Positions 494 to 37,951 of a stretch of 64,000 nucleotides of DNA are shown here, in pieces; position 1 is the first letter of the stretch, and every line of letters begins with the position of its first letter. This DNA is from Spirochaetae bacterium HGW-Spirochaetae-1 (GTDB lineage Bacteria; Spirochaetota; UBA4802; UBA5550). The stretch lies in NCBI GenBank assembly GCA_002839375.1, contig PGXY01000002.1:473037-537036 (forward strand), read 5' to 3'. The notes beneath the pieces are model-generated. The model searched no databases, was not told the DNA's origin, and was given only the letters and a program-made list of their open reading frames with translations. Both the position numbers and the translations under genes were made by a program.

Positions 494-1270
494 TTATTGG
501 TTTCTGACACAGCGCACGAAACCATATTCGTAGTCAAAGGTATTTGAGTTTGCGACGCCATTATAGAAATTAATGGTTCTTGCATAATCACTGGAGAAAA
601 TTAAAGACGATGTCCAATATTTTTTTATATCAGTTGAGAAAGCAAGCACAAACAATTCTGTTAAGGAATTTGCAAATCCTCCAATATCCTTGTAAATAGT
701 GTTTGGAAAGAATGTTTCGTTAATTGCCGCCTCGTTTGATTCGGTATTCCCAAAATATGTAATTGAAAATAATTCATGGGAAGTAGGTAACCGCCAATCA
801 TCATAACCTGCGAAAATTAGATTTTCACAGGAGCTCTTGGCATTAGTCCATGTATATGCTCCTTCATTCGGGGGAGTCCCTGAATGATCAATACCGCTGC
901 AGTCAGCACTTGAATCAATTACGCCACCTGAATCCATTGAACATTTGGTCCACATGAGACTTGTAATGTTATCAACTACGACATCATCCCCTCCTAGAGT
1001 TTGGGATGTATATGACATGGCTGGAAGATTTAAGTAATCACTATCTTCACCGAAGTGATTGGTATTACTGTCAACTTGCCCGGTATCAGTAATGGGGAAG
1101 TATATTTTGTGTATTTGTTCTAAACCATTATAATCGACATAATTATTTTCTTCATTAATTGTATCAATCATGTCATCATCAAAGCAAGCCGATACCGTCG
1201 TGGTCAAAGTGATCAGACAGATAAGAACTATCAATCCAGGAAAATGCTGAGGTAAATTCTTTATAGTCAT
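494..1270 (-). CDS. DUF1566 (Lcl C-terminal domain) family lipoprotein
   Basis: ORF 494-1306. The first ATG at 1270 gives MTIKNLPQHFPGLIVLICLITLTTTVSAC with lipobox VSAC. Motifs LMWTKCSMD and GYDDWRLPTSHELFSI are the DUF1566 hallmark. It is a tandem paralogue of the preceding gene. Confidence 0.7.
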   Translation of the reverse strand: MTIKNLPQHFPGLIVLICLITLTTTVSACFDDDMIDTINEENNYVDYNGLEQIHKIYFPITDTGQVDSNTNHFGEDSDYLNLPAMSYTSQTLGGDDVVVDNITSLMWTKCSMDSGGVIDSSADCSGIDHSGTPPNEGAYTWTNAKSSCENLIFAGYDDWRLPTSHELFSITYFGNTESNEAAINETFFPNTIYKDIGGFANSLTELFVLAFSTDIKKYWTSSLIFSSDYARTINFYNGVANSNTFDYEYGFVRCVRNQ

Positions 1271-1625
1271 ACCCTGTTTTTTATAATCGATTAAATAATG
1301 CAGCAACTTGATTTCAATCTAAGTTTGTTATAATAGAATTGCATATTACGAATATTCTGTGTCTTTCATTAAAATATAAATAATTTTGAACCGCCCGGCA
1401 AGGTTTATTTGAACAATTTATAAAAAAATGTCGGTTATGCTCTCTAATCGAGTCTTATGTCACGCAATGTTTATGTATATAGTGAACAAAGTTAATTTTA
1501 TTGTAAAGAACAAATCAATCTCTGATTAATCAGGAATTGCACTTGTATTGTTAAGACCTGCATGGTACTTTAAATGCAAACCGTCCGGAAGGACGGATAA
1601 TCACCTTCTTACAGGATATCCGTCA

Positions 1626-3773
1626 ATGAAAAAATCATCGGGGAACCTCTCGCATAAGAAAAGAAAATTAGTCATTGCTCTTATTATTCTTACCGCGGCA
1701 ATGTCAGCAACCTGTTATGAGAATGAAGACGTGACACCACGGATGACACAGAATTCTTCCGATGGCGGTGTCTCGGGAGAAGACGGTATTTACCTTGTTG
1801 GATCCGGCATATATGATATAACCGGTCCGGCTGCGGAAGTGGGGATGATGGGATTTGCCGTCATGGAGCAGAAGACCTCGGGCATACATATGAGGCTGCG
1901 GTCCCGTGCCTTTATCATAGGCGACGGAAATAAGCGCGTGGTTTTTGTCAGCACCGATACGGGCATGATGTTCCAGGCCGTAAAAATGAAAGTAGCGGAG
2001 AAATTGCAGAGCGATCCGGAACTGGGGAAGTATTATGATGAATCCAATGTATGCCTCTCGGCCATCCATACTCACAGCGGCCCCGGAGGGTATTCCCATT
2101 ACTTCATGTATAATGTCACCATACTTGGCTTCATAGAAGATAATTTCAATGTCATAGTCGAGGGGATTTATGAATCGATAAAACGAGCCCACAATAATCT
2201 CCAACCGGGAAAAATTCTCATCAACACAGGCACACTGGACAACTGCGGATGGCAGCGGTCTGACTTCGCTTATCAAAATAATCCCCAAAATGAAAGAGAC
2301 CTGTATAAAAGCAACACGGACACCAGTTTCACTCTCCTGAAACTGGTTACGCTTGAAGGCGAGGAAGTGGGGATGATTAACTGGTTTGCCGTGCATCCCA
2401 CCAATATAGGACCGGAAAATACCCTTATCAGCGGTGATAACAAGGGCTACGCCTCCTACCTCTTCGAAAGGGACAAGGGAACGGATTACCAGGCTGAAAG
2501 GACTTTCGTCGCAGCTTTTGCCCAGGCCAATGCCGGAGATATATCGCCCAACGTTCCTTACGGCCCGGCCCCCGACAGTATCGATTTTAAAACAAACACC
2601 GGGCTGCATGAGGTCACCATGCGTCAATATGAGAAGGCTGTGGCACTATACAATGGCGCAGCGGAGTATGTGAAGGGAAGCGTGGATTTCAGGCATGAGT
2701 ATAAAGATATGAGAACACTTTTCGTTGAAGAAAAAAACTGTGTTACCTGCGCAGCGGCAATGGGAGCCTCTTTTGCATCGGGCAGTCCCAGCGATAATCC
2801 GAGCCCGGCACCTCTTTTCCCTCCCGGTGTAACGCGCGACAGCATTGACTGGACTGAAGACGCAAAAACTGCATTCCTGGCGGAATTTTTCCCGGCTGTG
2901 CTGGGGATAATATGGCCCGACACCCTGGATGAGGCATATGTGGAATGTCATGAAGAGAAACCCATTCTTATTCCCACGGGGATCATGGCATTGAACCTGA
3001 AAAATATCCCCATGACTCCCCAGATCATGCCCGTGCAGGTTCTGAAAGTGGGAAGTCTTATTATTGCTGCGCAGCCCACGGAAGTAACAACCATGGCGGG
3101 GCGGCGGCTGAAATTCTCCGTTCTCGATGAAATGAAGGGAAGCGGTGTGAAATATGCCGTTGTGGCCGGTCTGGCCAATTCGTATGCATCATACATGGCA
3201 ACAAGGGAGGAGTATGCAATGCAATCTTATGCAGGAGCATGCACACAGTTCGGTCCCAATGAACTGGCGGCATTCCAGCAGGAATTCCGCAGACTCTGCG
3301 CTGCCATGAAAAAAGGTGAAAAAGTTGAGAAGGTTATTACTCCGCCAGATCTTTCCGGAGAGCAGCATAATTTTCTTCCCGGCGTTGTCTTCGATGATAA
3401 GCCTGTGGATGTTGAATACGGTGACACCGTAGTCGAGCCGGCCGCCGAATACAATATCGGCGATACGGTTGAGGCCGTGTTCTGGGGAGGGCATCTTCGT
3501 AATAATCCCATGATCCAAAAAACGTTTCTTGAAATAGTAAAAGTTGACGAACAGGGGAATGATCTGGCTGTCGTAGCCAGGGACTGGAATCCTGAAACGG
3601 AACTTCGATGGAAGAGGGACGGTATTGCCTACTCGAAAATTACCATTCGCTGGAGAACTGAAAATGCCTCGAGGGGGATGTATGTCATCCGGCATTACGG
3701 TTATGAAAAATCCGGTTGGACCGGTCGGATAAGCCCTTATGAAGGAGAAACGAAGCCGTTTACTTTACAGTGA
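1626..3773 (+). CDS. neutral/alkaline ceramidase (N-acylsphingosine amidohydrolase) with lipoprotein-like signal
   Basis: 741-aa ORF. The HTHSGPGGY motif and GIHMRLRSRAFIIGD region match the neutral ceramidase family, and the C-terminal domain is present. The likely start is the internal ATG at 1626 (MKKSSGN...LTAAMSATC, signal plus Cys). Confidence 0.8.
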   Translation: MKKSSGNLSHKKRKLVIALIILTAAMSATCYENEDVTPRMTQNSSDGGVSGEDGIYLVGSGIYDITGPAAEVGMMGFAVMEQKTSGIHMRLRSRAFIIGDGNKRVVFVSTDTGMMFQAVKMKVAEKLQSDPELGKYYDESNVCLSAIHTHSGPGGYSHYFMYNVTILGFIEDNFNVIVEGIYESIKRAHNNLQPGKILINTGTLDNCGWQRSDFAYQNNPQNERDLYKSNTDTSFTLLKLVTLEGEEVGMINWFAVHPTNIGPENTLISGDNKGYASYLFERDKGTDYQAERTFVAAFAQANAGDISPNVPYGPAPDSIDFKTNTGLHEVTMRQYEKAVALYNGAAEYVKGSVDFRHEYKDMRTLFVEEKNCVTCAAAMGASFASGSPSDNPSPAPLFPPGVTRDSIDWTEDAKTAFLAEFFPAVLGIIWPDTLDEAYVECHEEKPILIPTGIMALNLKNIPMTPQIMPVQVLKVGSLIIAAQPTEVTTMAGRRLKFSVLDEMKGSGVKYAVVAGLANSYASYMATREEYAMQSYAGACTQFGPNELAAFQQEFRRLCAAMKKGEKVEKVITPPDLSGEQHNFLPGVVFDDKPVDVEYGDTVVEPAAEYNIGDTVEAVFWGGHLRNNPMIQKTFLEIVKVDEQGNDLAVVARDWNPETELRWKRDGIAYSKITIRWRTENASRGMYVIRHYGYEKSGWTGRISPYEGETKPFTLQ

Positions 3774-3792
3774 ATAAATGGTTTTGACATTT

Positions 3793-3856
3793 GTAGTGGC
3801 GTATATTCAGTAGGGGGCGGTTAATAAACCGCCCCCTACTGAATATACGCCACTAC
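3793..3856. repeat. perfect 30-bp inverted repeat with 4-nt loop (gtagtggcgtatattcagtagggggcggtt / aaccgccccctactgaatatacgccactac); probable bidirectional terminator between convergent genes
   Basis: Read directly from the sequence. The arms are exact reverse complements. It sits in the 94-nt gap between the ceramidase stop at 3773 and the HU stop at 3868. Confidence 0.6.
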
Positions 3857-3867
3857 TGTTATATATG

Positions 3868-4254
3868 TCAGTCTTTTTTCATTTTTGCTTTCAAAACTTC
3901 TTCTTTGAAATTTTTGTTGAAAGAAAATTTAGGAACCTTGGTTGCTTTCTTGGCGGAGATTTTTATTTCTTCACCGGTGGCGGGGTTCCTGCCGATACGG
4001 GCCTTTGTCGCCGGTCTTACTCGTACATGCAGTTTGCCGATGGTTCCAACCGGTACGCGCTCACCGGACATGACACCGGCATTGATCACATCGTAAAGGG
4101 AGTCGAGTATTTCCTTGGCCTGCTTTTTGGGCAGCTCGTGCTTTTCGGCAATGTAGCTGGAAATAGCTGTTGCGGTAAATTTTTCAGGATATTTCACCTT
4201 CGCTTTCTGCGTTGCCTTGGCAGCGACTTTTTTTTCGGTTTTCTTTGTAGCCAT
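3868..4254 (-). CDS. HU/IHF-family histone-like DNA-binding protein with lysine-rich N-terminal extension
   Basis: 128 aa. The C-terminal 90 aa carry HU signatures (GRNPATGEEIKI, arm region). The N-terminus is a K/A-rich tail (MATKKTEKKVAAKATQKAKVK). Confidence 0.8.
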   Translation of the reverse strand: MATKKTEKKVAAKATQKAKVKYPEKFTATAISSYIAEKHELPKKQAKEILDSLYDVINAGVMSGERVPVGTIGKLHVRVRPATKARIGRNPATGEEIKISAKKATKVPKFSFNKNFKEEVLKAKMKKD

Positions 4255-7223: not shown

Positions 7224-8015
7224 TCAGAAACGGAGACCGTCCTGGATGGATTCGCGGGATTTATTTATAAGATCCTGTATTGTATTCTCATCGTAGGCAG
7301 ATGTATCGATTGGTTTGTGTATGGTCATTGTTGCATTGCCGGGGAAGAGAGCCATGGAGCTGGCCGGAAGAATGTCCTTGGTGCCGCTGATAGTAACGGG
7401 AAGCACGGGCAATTGCATGTCCAGGGCGAATTTAAATGCACCCTTTTTAAATTCCGTGAGATTGCCCGTTTTACTCCGGGTCCCCTCGGGGAAAAAAATG
7501 ATGGATGTCCCGCCGGTAATTCTTTTTTTTGCCTCGTTGATGGACGCCAGCGCCGATGCGTGATCGGAACGGTTGATAAAGATGTGACCGGCTTTATAGC
7601 AGTAATAGCCCAGGACCGGCGCCTTGCGAAGTTCTACTTTCATGACCCAGCGGAAGTCAAGGGGAAGCCAGCCGTATATGGCGAAAATATCAAACTGGCT
7701 CTGGTGGTTCGCCACAACCACATAGGACTGATTGGGATCAATATTTTCCTCACCTTTAAGGGTCATTCTCATGGGGGTAATAAAACTGTTGAAGCGGGCC
7801 CAGAGGATACCGCTGATCTGGCCGGCTCTCTCTCCAAAGAGCCAGATAATAGGGACGGCCGCTATAGTGAGGATTATGGTGCTGAGTCCCAGTAACGGTA
7901 AAAAAATGAGCCATTTATATATCTGGTAAACGGCAAATAATGCCTTTATTTCACGCAGTTCTTTTCCGGGAATATATAAATTTTCTTTTGCTTTTTCCAA
8001 ATTACCAAATTTCAT
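7224..8015 (-). CDS. plsC: 1-acyl-sn-glycerol-3-phosphate acyltransferase PlsC-like
   Basis: 263 aa with an N-terminal TM segment. Motifs VANHQSQFD (HX4D) and FPEGTRS are present. There is a good RBS (AAAGAGGA) before the ATG at 8015. Confidence 0.8.
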   Translation of the reverse strand: MKFGNLEKAKENLYIPGKELREIKALFAVYQIYKWLIFLPLLGLSTIILTIAAVPIIWLFGERAGQISGILWARFNSFITPMRMTLKGEENIDPNQSYVVVANHQSQFDIFAIYGWLPLDFRWVMKVELRKAPVLGYYCYKAGHIFINRSDHASALASINEAKKRITGGTSIIFFPEGTRSKTGNLTEFKKGAFKFALDMQLPVLPVTISGTKDILPASSMALFPGNATMTIHKPIDTSAYDENTIQDLINKSRESIQDGLRF

Positions 8016-8076
8016 CAGATCCTCTTTGTTTTAATAAAAAAAAATTTTTTAAAAAAACTATCAAAGTAATTTAAAA

Positions 8077-8094
8077 GGACTGACCAGTCAGTCC
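8077..8094. promoter_or_regulatory. 18-bp palindrome GGACTGAC-CA-GTCAGTCC in divergent plsC / TetR promoter region; candidate TetR-family operator
   Basis: Exact 8-2-8 inverted repeat seen in sequence, 62 bp upstream of the plsC start and 347 bp upstream of the TetR ORF. TetR-family regulators typically bind such palindromes. Confidence 0.4.
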
Positions 8095-8440
8095 GATTAT
8101 TATAGAAGATATATCATAGTCTTACTTTGTCAAGAATAATATTGTCTTTTTAGCATAAATTGGCTTCAGACATATTCTTGTTCTTATAAAGAATTTTTAT
8201 ATCAATCGAATTTAGTTATTGAGCATAAAGAACAGAAAATTAAAAATGTTGACCATCCCCATAATTATTTTTCAAAGTTTCATTATGAGATATGGTTTTC
8301 TTGAAATTGTATCAAAGAAATAAAATAGAATAAGAAAATATGGCGCAATATCAACAATCATTAAACAATTAAGCCATGTGACCGGCATTACCTGATGATA
8401 ATCGTATGATATGCAAAACCGCAGAGCAGAGAGGTAGAAT

Positions 8441-9412
8441 ATGGACAAAGAAATAGAAAGGCAAAAACGTATCGCTTTTTATAGTGAAATCGGGCAGTTT
8501 TTTTCCCCCGATGCTACCTTTAACCGTCACAGCTTTCAGCAGACCCTTGCGGAGACATATGGGAAAATAGAATATGGACAAAATGATGTAGATAATCTGC
8601 CGGGTTCAAAGGCAGCGTGGCTTACGGAATACCTGTCCAGTATTTTTGAGTATCTGCAGGAAAAGGGCATGTCGCATAAATCCATGGATATCTTCAATGC
8701 TGCCCTGGAGGTTTCAGAGTCTCATGGCATAAGCTCAATTTCCATGCCGACAAAATATCTACGACAGATGATTATCAGCTATGAGGAAAAGAAGAGTACC
8801 CGGACCGACAAGAAAATATCCCCCGATGACAAGCGAGATCTTATTTTCAGGGCAGCAGTAAAAATATTTGCAGAAAAGGGCTTTCATAAGGCTACTATGG
8901 ACGAGATTGCCTCCCAGGCAGGAATGGGCAAGGGTTCCATATACCGGCACTTTAAGAGTAAGGAGGAGCTCCTCAGGCAGCTTCTCAATGAGAAGTACGA
9001 GGAAATAATGAAGCGCATTATACAGATTTTCTCCCGTGAACGCGACGTACTTCAGTATATAAAGGAAATGATAGAGGTCTGGATCGATTTCATAGATAAA
9101 AATCACGTAGTCTATCGGTTGATACAGAATGAAAGCATCGGGCTTATCGTCGGTGAAAATACCATGTTTTATGATTACCTCATAACTCATCTGCCAATGT
9201 TCAAAGAAAAAATACTGGCCATGAACAAGGAGAACCGGCTCAAGACCACTAACTTCTACACGGTTTTTTATGGCATACTCGGTTTTATCGACGGCGTTGT
9301 ACAGAAATGGTTTAGAAGGGGGATGAATTACTCCCTTCAGGAGGAAGTTCCTGTCATAATAGAGGTCCTTTTTAATGGATTCGTTGGCGCTTCTTCTTCC
9401 GGGACGAAGTGA
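8441..9412 (+). CDS. TetR/AcrR-family transcriptional regulator with about 125-aa N-terminal extension
   Basis: The TetR HTH IFAEKGFHKATMDEIASQAGMGKGSIYRHFKSKEELL lies at residues 140-175, followed by a ligand-binding-like helical domain. The N-terminal region is non-repetitive protein-like sequence in the same frame. An alternative internal start (MPTKYL...) is possible. Confidence 0.7.
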   Translation: MDKEIERQKRIAFYSEIGQFFSPDATFNRHSFQQTLAETYGKIEYGQNDVDNLPGSKAAWLTEYLSSIFEYLQEKGMSHKSMDIFNAALEVSESHGISSISMPTKYLRQMIISYEEKKSTRTDKKISPDDKRDLIFRAAVKIFAEKGFHKATMDEIASQAGMGKGSIYRHFKSKEELLRQLLNEKYEEIMKRIIQIFSRERDVLQYIKEMIEVWIDFIDKNHVVYRLIQNESIGLIVGENTMFYDYLITHLPMFKEKILAMNKENRLKTTNFYTVFYGILGFIDGVVQKWFRRGMNYSLQEEVPVIIEVLFNGFVGASSSGTK

Positions 9413-22722: not shown

Positions 22723-23058
22723 TCAGGCATGCGCCAATTCACGCTGCAGGGGGAACACCTCGGAAAGCTGGTAATTGGCATCACCCGGCATAAGATGAGC
22801 AGGATCATCACTGTCGTGAAGATAGGTGATTTCCAGTAAAGAACCGCGACATAAAAGTTCAAAAATATATGTTTTTACCGCTGTCGTGTTGATGGCTCGG
22901 ATGTGATATTTGAAATAGTCACGTTTTGGTGAAGCCAGATGACAATCAAAGCAAATATCGTTGCAACTGGCGTTATTCTGTTCCAGCCATTGTGAGATAA
23001 ATTCGCATGCCCGTTTTTGCGACACTCTCTGTTTGAAATTAAAAACATTGATATCCAT
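22723..23058 (-). CDS. hypothetical Cys-containing protein (111 aa)
   Basis: The ORF is followed by a clean terminator. It carries a CNDICFDCH motif and no recognisable family. Confidence 0.4.
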   Translation of the reverse strand: MDINVFNFKQRVSQKRACEFISQWLEQNNASCNDICFDCHLASPKRDYFKYHIRAINTTAVKTYIFELLCRGSLLEITYLHDSDDPAHLMPGDANYQLSEVFPLQRELAHA

Positions 23059-27756: not shown

Positions 27757-28662
27757 ATGATAAAAAAGATAACTGACCGCATTTCAGCGGTTTTTACTGA
27801 AGATGGTTTTTCATCGGGAAACTGTGTCCTGGTTGAAGATACGGTCAATCTCATGATTGACAGCGGTGCAGGCCGTGCACTAAAGGAAACGAGGCCGGAA
27901 CGGATAAATATCCTCCTCAACTCCCACCATCATATAGACCACATGGGCGGCAATGACTTCTTCCCCGCAGCCGTAAAAATGGCACATCCCCTGGAGATTG
28001 AATTCATGCAGGTGCCTGAAAAACTCAGCGCCACCGACGCCTGGAAGGAACTCATGGATCAGGACTGCATTCTCCATGCCAGGGAAATAAACGGACGCCC
28101 CAACCGGTTGTACCAGCCCTGGCATATCGATGAGATTATGCAGCCGGGCCAGGTCATAGAGTGCGGCCATACCCGCATTCGTGTAATTCACACGCCGGGC
28201 CATACGGCAGGTCATTGCTCCTTTCACTTTCCCGAAGAGAATATCCTTTTCCTTGCCGACATATGTCTTTCCAAGGTGGGGCCCTGGTACGGCGGCAGCG
28301 ATTCCAGTGTCGACGACTTCATCCATTCGATCAATGCCGTGCGTGAGATGAAACCCGAAATGGTGGTGACAGGCCATTACACGGATATACTTCGGGAGAA
28401 TATCGACGCGATCCTGGTGGAGTACCGCGATAGAATCCTGAAGCGGGAAGGGCGGATACTTGATTATTTGAAGGATACCCCGTCAACCATTCATGAGCTT
28501 GCCGGAAAGCGATTCATATACCCCGATCATCCCAATCCATTTGTCGTGTACTGGGAAAAAAGTATGATAATGAAACATCTGGAACGTCTCATGGGGCTGG
28601 GAGAGGTGACCCGGGAGGAAGGCAACCGCTTCAGAACAACAGTGACTGCCTCCAGTATATAG
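27757..28662 (+). CDS. MBL-fold metallo-hydrolase
   Basis: HxHxDH motif NSHHHIDHMGGN plus downstream His/Asp ligands (HTPGHTAGH). 301 aa. Confidence 0.75.
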   Translation: MIKKITDRISAVFTEDGFSSGNCVLVEDTVNLMIDSGAGRALKETRPERINILLNSHHHIDHMGGNDFFPAAVKMAHPLEIEFMQVPEKLSATDAWKELMDQDCILHAREINGRPNRLYQPWHIDEIMQPGQVIECGHTRIRVIHTPGHTAGHCSFHFPEENILFLADICLSKVGPWYGGSDSSVDDFIHSINAVREMKPEMVVTGHYTDILRENIDAILVEYRDRILKREGRILDYLKDTPSTIHELAGKRFIYPDHPNPFVVYWEKSMIMKHLERLMGLGEVTREEGNRFRTTVTASSI

Positions 28663-28673
28663 GAATACCGCCG

Positions 28674-31634
28674 TTACAGACCGAATTCGGTCCTCTCTAT
28701 CAATTCCATCTGCATTTCCCGGTTAAGCGTTACAAAATATGCGTTATATCCTGAAATGCGAACCAGGAGATTCTGATATTTTTCAGGATTGGCCATGGCG
28801 TCTCTCAGCGTGTCGGAATTAATTACGTTGAACTGCATCTGCATGCCTCCCAGGTCAAAATATGTCCGGACATAGGAGTGCATGGCATTGACGATTTCTT
28901 CACGCGTGTCACGAACGTCGGGAGACAGCTTTACGTTGAAGGCGATATTATTATCCATGCTTCCCGGAATCAGCTGCGCCACGTCATGTATATTATCCAG
29001 AAAATTTTTCGACGCTCCGGGCTGCGGGGTAAGACCCGGTGTAAAAGCCCTGCCGTCGAGACGTCCCGATGGCAGAGTTCCTGAAAGTGTTCCGTATGCC
29101 ACATGCTGAGACATGGACCAGAATCCGGCCGTATAGGGCCCGCCGCGGAAATTGGTGTGTGTACTCCAGGCTTCATGTATGAAGGATGCTATCCGCTGCG
29201 CCATCTCCATGGCTTCCCGGTCTCCTGACCCGAAGAGGGGAACTTTTCGCCGTACAATACTCATGAGGGCTGGATTGCGGGAAAAATCCGAATCTATGGC
29301 TTTCTTCAGTTCCCGGAAAGAAACAGCCTTTTCATCATATATGAGTTTTTTTATTACCATCATGGAATCAGTCACATCGGCAAGTCCGATATTGGATGTA
29401 CCTGAAGAATTATACCGTGCACCTCCCCGGGTAACATCGATACCGTTTTCGATTGCACCGTCAATGAGTGAGCTGAGAAAAGGGGTGGGCCTGAGTACTG
29501 CATGGGCCTGCGCCAGGAGATTATTCAACATGACTGACTGGTCTATGAGAAACCGTTGTTGCTCCGTAAAGGCTCGAAAAAAATCTTCGAAATCAGGAAA
29601 TTGGTCCTTTTCAATGTCCCCCGTTTCAGGTCCAAACTGCTGATTCATGTGGGGATGTCTGCCGTTATTGAGGGCCATTTCCAGTGCCGATACCATGTTC
29701 ATGAGTATGGATCCCGTGTGTCCCATGTGTCGGCCCGAAAGTGTGGGTTCAACGCAGCCCGTGGCCGACCAGTCATGAATATGCCGCTCTTCGTAACCCT
29801 TGTCCGCAAGTGACAGAAAAACGGCGCTGTCATTATGCATGGACGGCGTGGCGGCAGTGGTATAATTAACTTCACAGAGACGTTTCAGATAGGTATCACT
29901 GTTTGTGCCGGGATGAAACCGGGCATTTATATTGGGATCCCGGATGGAAAGCATCTCCGTGGCTTTCAGGAAAATATATGTCATATCATTGACACCATCG
30001 TCTCCACCGGGAGTTATTCCTCCCAGCGTGACGGCCTGATCGGAAGAACTGCCGCCGAAGAGATAGTTGCCGATATCGGGCACCGTGGGAAGATGATCGG
30101 TGCCGCGCATAAGAAGACATCCCGTCAGTTCAATGGCTTTTTTTATATACGATTGTCTTTTTTCCCCTGATGAAATTTCCTGCATATCATTGATGAAATA
30201 AGGATTGAGCCATTGATCGAGGCGTCCCATGGAAAGCCCCGTGTTAGTGTTCTCCATATGCAGGGCAATCCAGACAATCCAGATCACCTGGAAGGCCTCA
30301 TGAAGCGTAGCGGCAGGATTGCGCGGCACCCTGTCACAGATATCGGCTATCTCCACCAGTTCATCACGTCGTGACGTGTCATCTTCCAGGGCAGCTCTGC
30401 GGCGCGCTTCACCGGCCAGATTAGAAGCATATATATTGAGGCCTTCAAGCGTGATTTTCATGGCTGTTAGACTGTTTATTTTGTCCATGTCCGTTTTTCT
30501 GTCCAGAGAACCCAGGCGTTCATCGATTTCCTTGATGATTCCTGTTGTGCCTCTGCCAAGAATGGATGGATAGTCCGGGATGGTGTGGGATATTCCCACG
30601 GATTTCCACACGAAATAATACACCCACCGTTCTTCGATTTTCATACACAGGGGATAATCGTTATTACTTCGAACATATTCCTTGAAGTTACGATGTATCC
30701 AGAAGGGAAAAATATCCCGGTGAAGCGTGAGGGCATCTTCAGGTGATATGCTGTAGGGATTGAGAGTGCGGTGTTCAAGGGAGTTCAGCTCGCCCCATAA
30801 CATGCCGGCATGGGCGTCGGGATAAAGAAGGACGCCTGCCGGTTCTTTCGACGTGGTGGTCCCGGCCAGGATTGATCCTTCCGCTATGACGGGTTTTTTT
30901 TTATCCATGAGGTGCTTGAAGGCCATGGCCTGCCGAAGCACCGGGATCCAGCAATGTTCTTCCTTATCGGTTTCAAATCCATGTTCCCTGAACCATTCTG
31001 TCAGGAGCCTGGGGCGTTCAATGCAAACGACGGGTTTAGCGGTGAAATGTTTTTCCAGCATTCTTTCAAGTCGGGGGAAATCAGCAAGGGTGTATTCACC
31101 CAGGTAGGGATCGTTCAGGTATTTTACGTTACGGTCTATTGAACCGGCCTTCAGGGGATTCCGGCTCCTTTCTTTCATTCTTGAACTGTAATCAGTATTG
31201 GCATGGCCTTTTAGTTGTTTTTTATCTTTGATATATTTTTTATTTTTAACAGTGAGCATTTTGCCATGGACTTTCCCCAGCAGAAGAGAAACGTAATAAT
31301 TGAAAAGTTGCAGGTATGCAATATTGCCGTCGAGAATCATTTTATTATTCAATATCAGGCTGAGCATTTCATTGGGAGTTATAAGAAGCATTTCCCATAA
31401 TGTTTTATTAGTGCTGAACCGGAGAATAACCTCGGCAGCTTCAGGAGTGGTTTTATGAACAAAAACCCGGCCTCCTTTGAACGATATTGCCCTGTCCACG
31501 CTGCCCGTTTCAGTTTTAAAACCGATAGTGAAATTATACCATCCTTCACAGTGTTGAAGATAGGTATTAAATCGCTTGTTTTTATTAAAAACGAAGGCCA
31601 TAGTATACAGTAATAGAAATATTATCATGTTCAT
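28674..31634 (-). CDS. glycyl-radical enzyme, PFL2/dehydratase (single-Cys GCVEP) clade, with about 180-aa N-terminal extension
   Basis: The C-terminal glycyl-radical motif is LVRISGYNAYFVTL and the active-site loop is WSATGCVEPTLSG. The canonical GRE N-terminus begins about residue 185 (FPRLERMLEKH...). The extension opens with a hydrophobic helix, MNMIIFLLLYTMAFVF. There is an RBS (GGAG, 10-nt spacer) before the first ATG. Confidence 0.8.
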   Translation of the reverse strand: MNMIIFLLLYTMAFVFNKNKRFNTYLQHCEGWYNFTIGFKTETGSVDRAISFKGGRVFVHKTTPEAAEVILRFSTNKTLWEMLLITPNEMLSLILNNKMILDGNIAYLQLFNYYVSLLLGKVHGKMLTVKNKKYIKDKKQLKGHANTDYSSRMKERSRNPLKAGSIDRNVKYLNDPYLGEYTLADFPRLERMLEKHFTAKPVVCIERPRLLTEWFREHGFETDKEEHCWIPVLRQAMAFKHLMDKKKPVIAEGSILAGTTTSKEPAGVLLYPDAHAGMLWGELNSLEHRTLNPYSISPEDALTLHRDIFPFWIHRNFKEYVRSNNDYPLCMKIEERWVYYFVWKSVGISHTIPDYPSILGRGTTGIIKEIDERLGSLDRKTDMDKINSLTAMKITLEGLNIYASNLAGEARRRAALEDDTSRRDELVEIADICDRVPRNPAATLHEAFQVIWIVWIALHMENTNTGLSMGRLDQWLNPYFINDMQEISSGEKRQSYIKKAIELTGCLLMRGTDHLPTVPDIGNYLFGGSSSDQAVTLGGITPGGDDGVNDMTYIFLKATEMLSIRDPNINARFHPGTNSDTYLKRLCEVNYTTAATPSMHNDSAVFLSLADKGYEERHIHDWSATGCVEPTLSGRHMGHTGSILMNMVSALEMALNNGRHPHMNQQFGPETGDIEKDQFPDFEDFFRAFTEQQRFLIDQSVMLNNLLAQAHAVLRPTPFLSSLIDGAIENGIDVTRGGARYNSSGTSNIGLADVTDSMMVIKKLIYDEKAVSFRELKKAIDSDFSRNPALMSIVRRKVPLFGSGDREAMEMAQRIASFIHEAWSTHTNFRGGPYTAGFWSMSQHVAYGTLSGTLPSGRLDGRAFTPGLTPQPGASKNFLDNIHDVAQLIPGSMDNNIAFNVKLSPDVRDTREEIVNAMHSYVRTYFDLGGMQMQFNVINSDTLRDAMANPEKYQNLLVRISGYNAYFVTLNREMQMELIERTEFGL

Positions 31635-31672
31635 TTGATGTTCTCCGTTTCTTGAATAATACGAGCCATAAA

Positions 31673-31700
31673 CATTGTTAATTTAACACTGTTAATTTAA
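31673..31700. promoter_or_regulatory. tandem 14-bp direct repeat cattgttaatttaa / cactgttaatttaa containing palindrome TGTTAA-T-TTAACA, in GRE promoter region
   Basis: Seen in sequence 40-65 bp upstream of the GRE start codon. A candidate transcription-factor site. Confidence 0.35.
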
Positions 31701-31787
31701 AAGTCAAGGTTTTTACTGAATTATAACTGAGATTTAAAGTTTTTTTTTCTTGCTATTTCGTTTCAATATACTAGGCTAAAAACATTA

Positions 31788-32168
31788 GTGTATATCAGGG
31801 TAGAGACTTGTTATTTATACAGGAATATGGAAAGTAATTCAGTTCATCCATTCAGTGAAGACCAAGTAAAAACGATCACCCTGGAATTCTACCTGGAGGA
31901 TATGCAATTATTCGTTCGTTATAACAACCAGACGCATCTATTCCGGGATTTCTGGAAACAAACTGAAGGGGCTGAACTAATCTGCCGCCGGATTTATGAA
32001 GCCTTTTTAATCCAGCATCGGGAACTTTTGGAAGATATAGCTGTTTCTTCGAAAAACTGGCTGGAGACCTTTCTTAAAATTATAAATAATCATCTTAGTG
32101 AAAAAACACCGATACTCGATGTCTTTATGCGTGCGAATGGAGACGTGATTATTAATCTTGAAAGATAA
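31788..32168 (+). CDS. hypothetical protein (126 aa)
   Basis: ORF only, with no recognisable motif. Confidence 0.35.
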   Translation: MYIRVETCYLYRNMESNSVHPFSEDQVKTITLEFYLEDMQLFVRYNNQTHLFRDFWKQTEGAELICRRIYEAFLIQHRELLEDIAVSSKNWLETFLKIINNHLSEKTPILDVFMRANGDVIINLER

Positions 32169-32239
32169 TCCTCGGTAGAGTAGCATTTATTGTGCATTTT
32201 GTTCATCAAATTACAGGATAAGGACGCAAGTAACCATTA

Positions 32240-32698
32240 ATGCTGATTGTACTCCTCGTTTCATTGCTTCTCATTTCCTTCCTGGTGCATATTAATTTTA
32301 TTCTCAAGTATATTATCAAAAGAGAAAACGTATACTACAAAGGATTCATCATAACAATCTTCTCCAATTTTATCATTGCCGGCATTCTTATTGTCATAGC
32401 ACTCACGAAACCGGAGCTCATACGCGATCTGGATATGACTATCCTTGTATGGGCATTGTCGGGAGTTATCATGACAATGCTGCTTCTCATGAAAATCTCC
32501 ATATTCAGAAATATTTACAAACGATCCAAATTGCCGGAACATTATCATCTGAATTTTTTTGGGAAAAAAGTGCTTCACGGTACTGTAGTTAAGCCGGCGG
32601 AAATAGTGCTTTTTTTTGGTTCTATTCCTTTTTTCCTTATTGCGGGAGCCTATTTTATAGCCAGAATAATCAATTTTATCATGTATAAACATTTATAA
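32240..32698 (+). CDS. hypothetical integral membrane protein (4 predicted TM helices)
   Basis: Four hydrophobic stretches. The antisense ORF 32261-32692 is rejected on composition. Confidence 0.45.
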   Translation: MLIVLLVSLLLISFLVHINFILKYIIKRENVYYKGFIITIFSNFIIAGILIVIALTKPELIRDLDMTILVWALSGVIMTMLLLMKISIFRNIYKRSKLPEHYHLNFFGKKVLHGTVVKPAEIVLFFGSIPFFLIAGAYFIARIINFIMYKHL

Positions 32699-37612: not shown

Positions 37613-37951
37613 CTGTACCTCCCTATTATAATATAAACATTTTCCCAGTTTGCAATATTCAAGAAAATGTTAAGTAAACAAATCAATGAATCTATATATA
37701 ATTTAGACAATTTTGATCCGAAAAAGCGAGCATTTTTTTTTAAAAACAAAAAAATTATAAAAGAATCATAATAAGTCATCATAAGAATGATGCCGGGTGA
37801 GTGTAACGACCGAAATAACCGTATTTTTTTAGTTCCCCTAATAAAAAACCTTGTTGATACCAGTCTCAATAAGGTAAAAAGTGATTGCCTGAAAATTCAA
37901 TTTGTAGAACAGTAATAATTGTTAAAATATCAATAAGGGAAATAGATATTA

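Follow-up and report, generated by a model that had tools for sequence, protein, structure and literature searches.

A glycyl radical enzyme with a predicted N-terminal SCP2 domain and a conserved, putative TetR operator in a spirochaetal genome

In a 64,000-nucleotide stretch of the genome of Spirochaetae bacterium HGW-Spirochaetae-1 (contig PGXY01000002.1; hereafter the window), we characterised a gene for an oxygen-sensitive glycyl radical enzyme (GRE) whose N-terminal region is predicted to be an SCP2 domain. We read its product as an eliminase-type enzyme that would act on a hydrophobic hydroxylated substrate and whose gene would be controlled through a TetR operator. Taken as a whole, this reading is the one that we favour as reasonably probable. 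We are highly confident of its descriptive part, i.e. the domain architecture, the conservation of the catalytic residues and of the operator, and the structure of the family operon. The chemistry, the hydrophobic nature of the substrate, the function of SCP2 and a regulation acting in trans are the parts that we infer; among them, the chemistry and the SCP2 function form a serious proposal that falls just short of probable. The features of the gene are as follows.

28674..31634, minus strand: complete open reading frame (ORF) of the SCP2-fused GRE, 986 residues, ATG at 31634..31632 (ORF list and Pfam)
31245..31634, minus strand: predicted SCP2-fold domain, residues 1-130 (conserved motifs, AlphaFold2 model, Foldseek)
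31074..31244, minus strand: variable linker rich in Lys and Arg, residues 131-187, starting as a continuation of the last SCP2 helix
29091..31073, minus strand: PFL-like ten-stranded barrel, residues 188-848 (Pfam PF02901, E 9.8e-162)
30585..30587, minus strand: His350 codon (pairwise HMMER alignments to 1r8w, 6vxc and 9f3w)
29745..29759, minus strand: Cys loop G626-C627-V628-E629-P630 with the CXE motif (aligned with glycerol dehydratase (GD), HypD and CutC)
28731..29045, minus strand: glycyl radical domain, residues 864-968 (Pfam PF01228, E 2.8e-24)
28746..28760, minus strand: RISGY motif, Gly962 codon at 28749..28751

The N-terminal extension

An initial annotation of the window had remarked that the ORF extends about 180 residues ahead of the conserved GRE, and the PFL-like domain of Pfam indeed starts at residue 188. 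A protein search returned 431 homologue clusters at E <= 1e-10. In the best 120 of these 431 clusters, identity ranges from 56 to 67%, most proteins are full-length (about 975-1030 residues) and the N-terminal extension is conserved. The N-termini of the homologues align from their first residues (MN..LL.LMA..FN.RP.L..YL...DGWINF.VGF), with FN, GW.NF.VGF, TPNE.L and GN..YLQ.FN as conserved motifs, and column conservation is low at about residues 125-165, i.e. in the basic linker.

The AlphaFold2 model of residues 1-130, built from 35 sequences, has a pLDDT of 91.8 and a pTM of 0.83. A Foldseek search of the PDB with this model gave only SCP2 domains among its 45 best matches (top probability 1.00, E down to 4.5e-5, TM about 0.6-0.67), comprising UbiJ-SCP2, the C-terminal domains of the SdsA1/Pisa1 alkylsulfatases and sterol carrier proteins. 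According to this model, residues 1-130 are a conserved SCP2 domain of the sterol/lipid-carrier fold. In the full-length model (52 sequences; pLDDT 86.9, pTM 0.90), a long helix at residues 105-142 is the last SCP2 helix running on, with a pLDDT of 61-77 at residues 131-160, and the segment from about residue 161 is extended yet confident and leads into the barrel. When this model was compared by Foldseek, the SCP2 part was not covered by any solved GRE. No match was found in Pfam or NCBIfam for residues 1-187 at E <= 0.01, the Pfam SCP2 model included, and a PDB profile search with the N-terminal domain gave only spurious matches to designed proteins.

To account for the extension, the initial annotation had offered a membrane-tethered GRE or a mis-called start; both explanations are rejected because the extension is a conserved domain that folds confidently as SCP2 in the model. 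The hydrophobic helix noticed at the N-terminus is, in the predicted fold, SCP2 helix 1 (residues 2-18), which is amphipathic in homologues, with variable polar leaders ahead of it. As for the start, the homologues begin at the same MN...LL.LMA..FN position and a GGAG box lies 8 nt before the ATG; a start at the internal Met125 would remove a domain conserved in every homologue examined. The gene call of the Joint Genome Institute (JGI; P0001, on source contig Ga0246094_000026 of metagenome 3300038334) starts at Met12, within SCP2 helix 1, and gives a protein of 975 residues. Since the homologue N-termini align at Met1 (31634) and the GGAG box precedes it, Met1 is favoured over the JGI start (region 31601..31634).

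A profile of the SCP2 domain, searched against 1.84 billion representative proteins, gave 314 matches at E <= 0.001, including 110 at E <= 1e-10. In the subset that was inspected, the strong matches are full-length GREs of ~984-1024 residues or N-terminal fragments entering the GRE sequence. The weaker matches include stand-alone proteins of ~157 residues and C-terminal fusions to the end of other GREs (fragments P0380 and P0387). Because N-terminal fusions, C-terminal fusions and stand-alone relatives all occur, the pairing of SCP2 with GREs is recurrent, and the association therefore arose, or was rearranged, more than once. The distant SCP2-like module, either following the glycyl radical domain of the other GRE group or alone, was observed in P0380, P0387, L088 (1-2574), P0356 and P0365.

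Catalytic residues and enzyme class

The initial annotation had assigned the ORF to the dehydratase/lyase type of GREs, distinct from PFL, from its RISGY motif and its single-Cys GCVEP loop. This assignment holds, since the best sequence and fold matches are Archaeoglobus fulgidus PFL2 (AfPFL2), dehydratases, HypD and CutC. The radical loop reads LLVRISGYNAYF, with Gly962, and the Cys loop reads SATGCVEPT, with one cysteine (Cys627) followed by Glu629. These two residues align with Cys433/Glu435 of GD and with the GCVE motifs of HypD and CutC. His350 is the equivalent of GD His164 and of the His in the PGHT motif of HypD. The motifs GCVEP, SHT (containing His350) and VRISGYNAYF are invariant across the SCP2-GRE family. 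The CXE motif is kept by all characterised GRE 1,2-eliminases and isomerases, His164 is the proposed acid that protonates the leaving hydroxyl in GD, and an equivalent Cys503/Glu505 pair exists in hydroxyphenylacetate decarboxylase (HPAD) (PMC13450708). Moreover, the pairwise alignment places Gly466 and Gly641 of the window GRE at GD Ser282 and Asp447, so that the contacts to a small diol are lost.

The best PDB sequence match is AfPFL2 (403 bits), followed by CutC, HypD, GD and propanediol dehydratase (350-378 bits). Scores are far lower for MasD (236 bits), BSS (185 bits) and HPAD (136 bits), as well as for PFL. In the same way, the target-normalised TM-scores of Foldseek are 0.90-0.93 for propanediol dehydratase, GD, AfPFL2, HypD and CutC, and 0.78-0.84 for MASS/BSS. 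Classified against curated GRE families, as the initial annotation had suggested, the protein carries the eliminase-type fingerprint (Cys627, Glu629, His350) without reaching any family cut-off; its scores are far below the cut-offs of the HypD, CutC and HpsG/HpfG equivalogs. As it stays below the cut-off of every NCBIfam GRE model, it belongs to a separate GRE clade. Judging from the catalytic residues, the enzyme is likely an eliminase that cleaves C-O bonds, or a close relative of such an enzyme that opens rings or cleaves ethers, and its pocket is likely enlarged and less polar. Its substrate is probably greasy, lipid-like and handled by no known GRE.

Predicted operator and family operon

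Using the SCP2 alignment, we searched one genome per species and obtained 40 loci (numbered L; proteins are numbered P) from Spirochaetota/Leptospirales, Desulfobacterales (including Desulfosudis oleivorans), Syntrophaceae, Bacillota, Syntrophomonadaceae and Bacteriovoracaceae. The usual family operon consists of tetR, the SCP2-GRE gene and the gene of its activase. In 27 of the 40 loci, tetR directly precedes the GRE gene and shares its strand. The tetR product combines TetR_N and TetR_C_33. In the window, three elements precede the GRE gene.

31680..31707, minus strand: sigma-70-like promoter, with the -35 box TTGACT at 31707..31702, a 16-nt spacer and the -10 hexamer at 31685..31680 (consensus scan)
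31669..31702, minus strand: composite palindromic operator, TTTTAAATTAACAG-TGTTAAATTAACA-ATGTTTA on the coding strand, containing a tandem 14-nt repeat
31643..31646, minus strand: GGAG ribosome-binding site, 8 nt 5' of the ATG at 31634 (sequence reading)

On the coding strand, the upstream region reads TTGACT-t-TTAAATTAACAG-TGTTAAATTAACA-ATGTTTA. The extended -10 box is TG-T-TAAATT, and the operator overlaps both the spacer and the -10 box. From the end of the operator, 22 nt lead to the GGAG box, which is followed by 8 nt and the ATG. The tandem 14-bp repeat with its palindrome had already been noticed in the initial annotation and was recovered by a repeat finder: the two 14-nt copies start 14 nt apart and are 93% identical in one register and 86% in another, with the perfect 13-mer palindrome TGTTAATTTAACA at 31676..31688.

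Across the 40 loci (549,314 bp), the core TGTTAA-N-TTAACA with at most one mismatch occurs at 24 sites, versus 1.25 in shuffled sequences (maximum 3). Every one of the 24 sites is found at the tetR 5' end: in 21 loci the tetR start follows shortly after, and in L026 the operator is just inside a tetR start extrapolated from tblastn. The core is thus present in 22 of the 27 loci bearing tetR. Aligned upstream of tetR in 25 further loci, the operators follow the pattern [T/G]AACA-n-(T/C)GTTAA-N-TTAACA-nn-GTT[C/A]A. This composite palindrome starts, in loci of several phyla, about 8 nt past a TTGAC(A/T) -35 box, an arrangement that the window copy matches exactly; nearly all orthologous operators have a -35 box of this type, or a one-base variant of it, at the same distance. 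The suggestion of a dedicated regulator site, which a lack of the repeat in orthologous promoters would have undermined, is thereby strengthened: the repeat is conserved in these promoters, and the same core stands at tetR across phyla (22 of the 27 tetR-bearing loci). From this conservation, the palindrome is the predicted operator of a family-specific TetR repressor whose gene is normally directly upstream of the GRE gene.

The window is the only locus with the operator yet without an adjacent tetR. The repressor may thus reach the window promoter in trans; alternatively, it has been lost, which would leave this promoter constitutive. A candidate protein for the genome of the window, P0409, was rejected: it belongs to another organism, whose tetR-GRE locus is normal. 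The operator count in the window is unmatched by any shuffle of the window, and there is no sign of a regulon within it because four of the eight matches at <= 2 mismatches are the operator itself. Apart from the operator itself, the window has a single near match to the core, TGTTAAGTAAACA at 37668..37680, with one mismatch when the centre base is left free; as a second operator it was rejected, being at chance level. No Rfam match for a riboswitch or leader RNA was found in the window between 26000 and 34000.

The closest relatives of the window GRE are L007 and L002 (= L020), each 66.6% identical, and its nearest relatives come from Spirochaetota metagenome-assembled genomes. More generally, the hosts lean to anaerobes degrading fatty acids or hydrocarbons (Desulfobacterales, among them Desulfosudis oleivorans and Desulfatiferula olefinivorans, Syntrophaceae, Syntrophomonadaceae) and to Spirochaetota from digesters.

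Two tandem SCP2-GRE paralogues followed by a single activase gene are found in some Spirochaetota and Syntrophaceae (L004 20-5645, L005 6994-12955, L009 3257-9392 and L013 1865-7975). These paralogues differ past the Cys loop (GHTNCMMFN vs GHTGSILMN, the window gene being of the latter type), which suggests two related substrates. In addition, a gene for an AMP-binding acyl-CoA synthetase adjoins tetR-GRE, upstream of tetR in L016, L023, L026 and L027 and downstream of the GRE gene in L006. The same association is seen in L126 and L127 (2596-5842), where a gene for a radical-SAM protein of 496 residues, not of the activase type, is divergent to tetR. The acyl-CoA synthetase and this radical-SAM protein may be pathway partners. 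Beside the GRE genes of the 40 loci, there is no conserved cluster of small ORFs and no conserved gene for a small (beta, gamma or delta) subunit, ORFs of at least 70 residues being covered.

The activase

The initial annotation had reported no radical-SAM activase on either flank of the gene. Inspection of the ORFs and tblastn agree with it over the whole 64 kb: no ORF of at least 100 residues resembles a GRE activase in the window, and 11 cognate activases from orthologous loci gave a best tblastn E of 0.08. One ORF alone, among those of at least 100 residues in the window, contains the CxxxCxxC motif:

22723..23058, minus strand: ORF of 111 residues with CX3CX2C at residue 32 and several further cysteines

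This ORF was rejected as a degenerate activase, having no match to a Pfam or NCBIfam family. When an alignment of 10 cognate activases was searched against metagenome contigs, the best 80 matches listed included no contig of sample Ga0246094.

The family activase is a radical-SAM protein with a ferredoxin-like insert. Its gene adjoins that of the GRE in 12 of the 40 loci, and about 15 loci with at least 3 kb on both sides have none. This activase clade is specific: among metagenomic sequences, its best relatives also flank SCP2-GREs. The SCP2-GRE of the L002 genome is an "orphan" as well; its 4.8-Mb contig encodes a 70%-identical activase (P0128) at a distance of about 380 kb. In this family, an activase gene apart from that of the GRE is thus the normal state, given the adjacency in 12 of the 40 loci only and the distance kept in L002. 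Hence, of the description of the window GRE as an unusual orphan, the absence of an activase stands, but it is less unusual than suggested. Activase specificity is tied to the Gly loop (PMC13450708), and the loop VRISGYNAYF is identical in activase-linked and unlinked members, which fits a shared activase type.

This activase of the L002 genome is of the cognate type and stands alone, ~4 kb from a second GRE that is split into three ORFs of 644, 92 and 69 residues (L124, contig_47028, 1251-4225 and 8001-8921). Along most of its length, the split GRE shows 39-44% identity to the window GRE; it has the N-terminal region, and a gene for an Fe-alcohol dehydrogenase precedes it. It could be a decaying paralogue or the product of assembly frameshifts.

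Proposed function and rival explanations

We propose that a radical-SAM activase encoded elsewhere in the genome would install the radical on Gly962, from which it would move to Cys627. Cys627, Glu629 and His350 would then act on a hydroxylated carbon chain: Glu629 of the CXE motif would take the proton from the substrate hydroxyl and His350 would protonate the leaving group on the neighbouring carbon, resulting in a C-O 1,2-elimination of the dehydratase or ether-lyase type. The SCP2 domain would bind a lipid-like substrate by its hydrophobic tail and present the polar head to the barrel, with long-chain vicinal diols, alkylglycerols and glycol ethers as candidate substrates. Transcription would start from the sigma-70-type promoter, whose spacer and -10 box are covered by the 33-bp composite palindrome and which would drive the GRE gene directly here, and TetR would let go of the operator on binding the substrate or a related lipid. 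Weak hints of a lipid substrate come from the degradation of fatty acids or hydrocarbons by many hosts, from the recurring acyl-CoA synthetase and from the alkylsulfatases, in which SCP2 serves for holding alkyl chains.

A broader and more tentative idea, possible though in our estimate rather unlikely, is that the SCP2-GRE clade forms a new functional class of GREs for membrane-lipid-like or surfactant-like substrates. An example, to be taken with the same reserve, would be the oxygen-independent cleavage or dehydration of alkylglycerol or glycol ethers and of long-chain diols, the SCP2 domain extracting the substrate and TetR sensing the same lipid. If true, a dedicated substrate-delivery domain would be a first among GREs, and the clade would provide a missing anaerobic route for the turnover of ether lipids or diol lipids in sediments and digesters.

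Several points weigh against our reading of the gene as a TetR-controlled eliminase for hydrophobic substrates. The window GRE is below every curated GRE cut-off in NCBIfam (TIGR01774: 499.6 vs 678.2). Elimination is not proven, because CXE is also found in GRE isomerases and because HPAD has a Glu at the same spacing from its Cys. The SCP2 assignment comes from a predicted structure, with 12-19% identity to solved SCP2 domains and without a Pfam SCP2 match, and the domain might serve for oligomerisation or activase docking, not for substrate capture. Family loci contain no conserved catabolic partner genes that would define a pathway. Finally, no TetR homologue was found in the 64 kb (best tblastn E 0.007), and neither TetR nor the activase was found on the source contig by protein searches with the TetR of L007 and the activase of L004, which covered the best 120 or word-matched clusters. 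Because neither protein has been located in the organism, the gene is possibly non-activatable or constitutively expressed.

This last point would be explained by a stranded remnant, i.e. a tetR-GRE-activase operon broken up here, whose activase and repressor are gone and whose GRE is constitutive and never activated. Neither gene lies within about 28-32 kb on either side in the window or was found on the source contig in the two protein searches, no other locus has the operator without an adjacent tetR, and a relative, the L002 genome, does contain a decayed GRE beside a stand-alone activase. However, the 986-codon ORF is intact, with every invariant catalytic and Gly-loop residue kept, and so are the promoter-operator and the ribosome-binding site. 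Moreover, the two protein searches were limited to the clusters just described and, within the genome, to the source contig, and L002, one of the two closest relatives, does have an activase gene far from that of its GRE. We therefore hold a remnant to be quite unlikely. Far less credible still, to the point of being nearly discarded, is that the N-terminal region serves as a membrane anchor or a microcompartment-targeting peptide. Residues 1-16 are hydrophobic, and some GREs are targeted to microcompartments by short N-terminal amphipathic helices followed by linkers. However, the helix in question is the first one of a 130-residue globular domain with a predicted pLDDT > 90, the helix is amphipathic in the homologues, where variable polar leaders come before it, and no gene for a shell protein was found in any annotated neighbourhood. 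GRE compartments are treated in a section of a GRE review (PMC13450708).

The other two alternatives concern the reaction itself. Instead of a 1,2-eliminase, the enzyme might be a decarboxylase or an isomerase of the GRE type whose substrate is a hydrophobic acid or a cyclic ether: CXE also occurs in GRE isomerases and HPAD has its Cys503/Glu505 pair, the window GRE fails every eliminase equivalog cut-off, and its substrate-contact residues are unlike those of all characterised eliminases. Against a decarboxylase, the match scores are lower, at 136 bits for HPAD, 236 bits for the indoleacetate decarboxylase model and 244 bits for AAD, and against both, the conserved His at the position of GD His164 fits the protonation of an oxygen leaving group. 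We regard this alternative as unlikely, and the isomerase part of it overlaps with the eliminase that we favour because isomerases opening a C-O ring share essentially the same first steps. Improbable in our view is a hydroalkylase resembling the X-succinate synthases, which would add a hydrocarbon to fumarate, with SCP2 delivering the alkane or alkene. The best PDB match, AfPFL2, has been reassigned by some recent work as an alkylsuccinate synthase (PMC13450708), many hosts belong to alkane- or alkene-degrading lineages, and a lipid-carrier domain would suit a hydrocarbon substrate. Nevertheless, MasD and BSS reach 236 and 185 bits versus 350-404 bits for the eliminases, with an agreeing fold ranking, and CXE and the His164 equivalent are invariant in the family. 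CXE is reported for eliminases and isomerases and is not listed for X-succinate synthases (PMC13450708). Furthermore, the characterised alpha subunits of these synthases need small subunits for solubility (PMC13450708), for which clustering of the neighbours in the 40 loci, covering ORFs of at least 70 residues, found no conserved genes.

Neighbouring genes

The genes on both sides of the GRE gene are the following.

27757..28662, plus strand: convergent metallo-beta-lactamase (MBL)-fold hydrolase, 301 residues (Pfam Lactamase_B)
31788..32698, plus strand: two small ORFs divergent from the GRE promoter, of 126 residues and of 152 residues, the latter hydrophobic and probably a membrane protein

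The ORF coordinates agree with the initial annotation in placing the MBL-fold gene in convergent orientation, 11 nt from the stop codon of the GRE gene. In five loci of Desulfobacteraceae, a co-directional MBL gene of 221-226 residues lies downstream of the GRE gene, and its product is 23-25% identical to that of the window. Given this identity and the differences in length and orientation, the MBL neighbour is unproven as a pathway partner and its tie to the GRE family is doubtful. The 126- and 152-residue ORFs have no significant family match and no counterpart near any other family member; likewise, none of the remaining neighbours in the window is conserved near other SCP2-GREs. Between 21317 and 25667, the window encodes a response regulator-PAS-SpoIIE phosphatase, two STAS proteins and methyl-accepting chemotaxis proteins. 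Such partner-switching and signalling genes are abundant in the window and in related Spirochaetota loci (L002, L124), which fits a Leptospirales-like spirochaete host.

Significance and comparison with known systems

Our literature search found no relevant paper joining GREs with SCP2 or sterol carrier domains, the single joint match being an unrelated fungal-genomics paper, and none joining GREs with ether- or diol-lipid substrates. A GRE review of June 2026 mentions no SCP2-GRE fusion and indicates that whole GRE clades remain unassigned (PMC13450708). What we describe is not a new catalytic principle, it is a distinct and widespread GRE clade with a fused lipid-carrier domain, as predicted, and a regulator-operator pair of its own. 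The GREs characterised so far handle small polar molecules or, with the extra subunits that this needs, hydrocarbons, and the SCP2 fusion points to a substrate class new to the superfamily. Sulfate-reducing, syntrophic and spirochaetal anaerobes commonly carry members of the family, whose chemistry could therefore bear on the anoxic breakdown of lipids, ether lipids or surfactants. The cognate TetR and its sharply defined operator could be used as a biosensor for the inducer, and hence for the substrate. Finally, "orphan" GREs need not be defective, as the activases of the SCP2-GRE clade are often unlinked.

Among known systems, GD and propanediol dehydratase (1r8w, 5i2g, 9rco) share with the window GRE the barrel and the glycyl radical domain (target-normalised TM 0.90-0.93, 29-31% identity), the CXE motif, the His164 equivalent and the type of activase, with its ferredoxin-like insert. 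They differ by the absence of SCP2, and the window GRE has Gly in place of GD Ser282 and Asp447 and scores below the TIGR01774 cut-off. In contrast to the dehydratases, the SCP2-GRE operon has TetR and is without a microcompartment or alcohol dehydrogenase and aldehyde dehydrogenase partners. AfPFL2 (2f3o), the best sequence match, also has the GCVE and SH motifs, and its function is debated (PMC13450708); it is an archaeal protein of 776 residues without the N-terminal SCP2 domain. It is not an evident orthologue because its 403 bits are just above CutC, HypD and GD (372-378 bits). The long form of CutC, the choline trimethylamine-lyase (9f3w, 1150 residues), is likewise an eliminase-type GRE with a large N-terminal extension. 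This extension is not an SCP2 fold, since a part of it, residues 126-279 of 9f3w, aligns to the barrel region of the query GRE, and CutC has Asp where the window GRE has His350.

For residues 1-130, the best fold matches are the SCP2 domains of UbiJ and of alkylsulfatases of the SdsA1/Pisa1 type. In both, SCP2 sits beside a catalytic module and takes up a hydrophobic chain, isoprenoid or alkyl. The window domain differs from them by its low identity (12-19%), the lack of a Pfam SCP2 match and its partner, which is here a radical enzyme. As for the operator, TetR repressors of the QacR type bind as a pair of dimers to composite palindromic operators over a promoter. The predicted operator resembles theirs, being a composite palindrome of ~29-33 bp that overlaps the spacer and the -10 box. 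Because tetR comes first in the operon, autoregulation is implied in the relatives of the window GRE, whereas the regulator gene is absent from the window locus, in contrast to the QacR-type systems.

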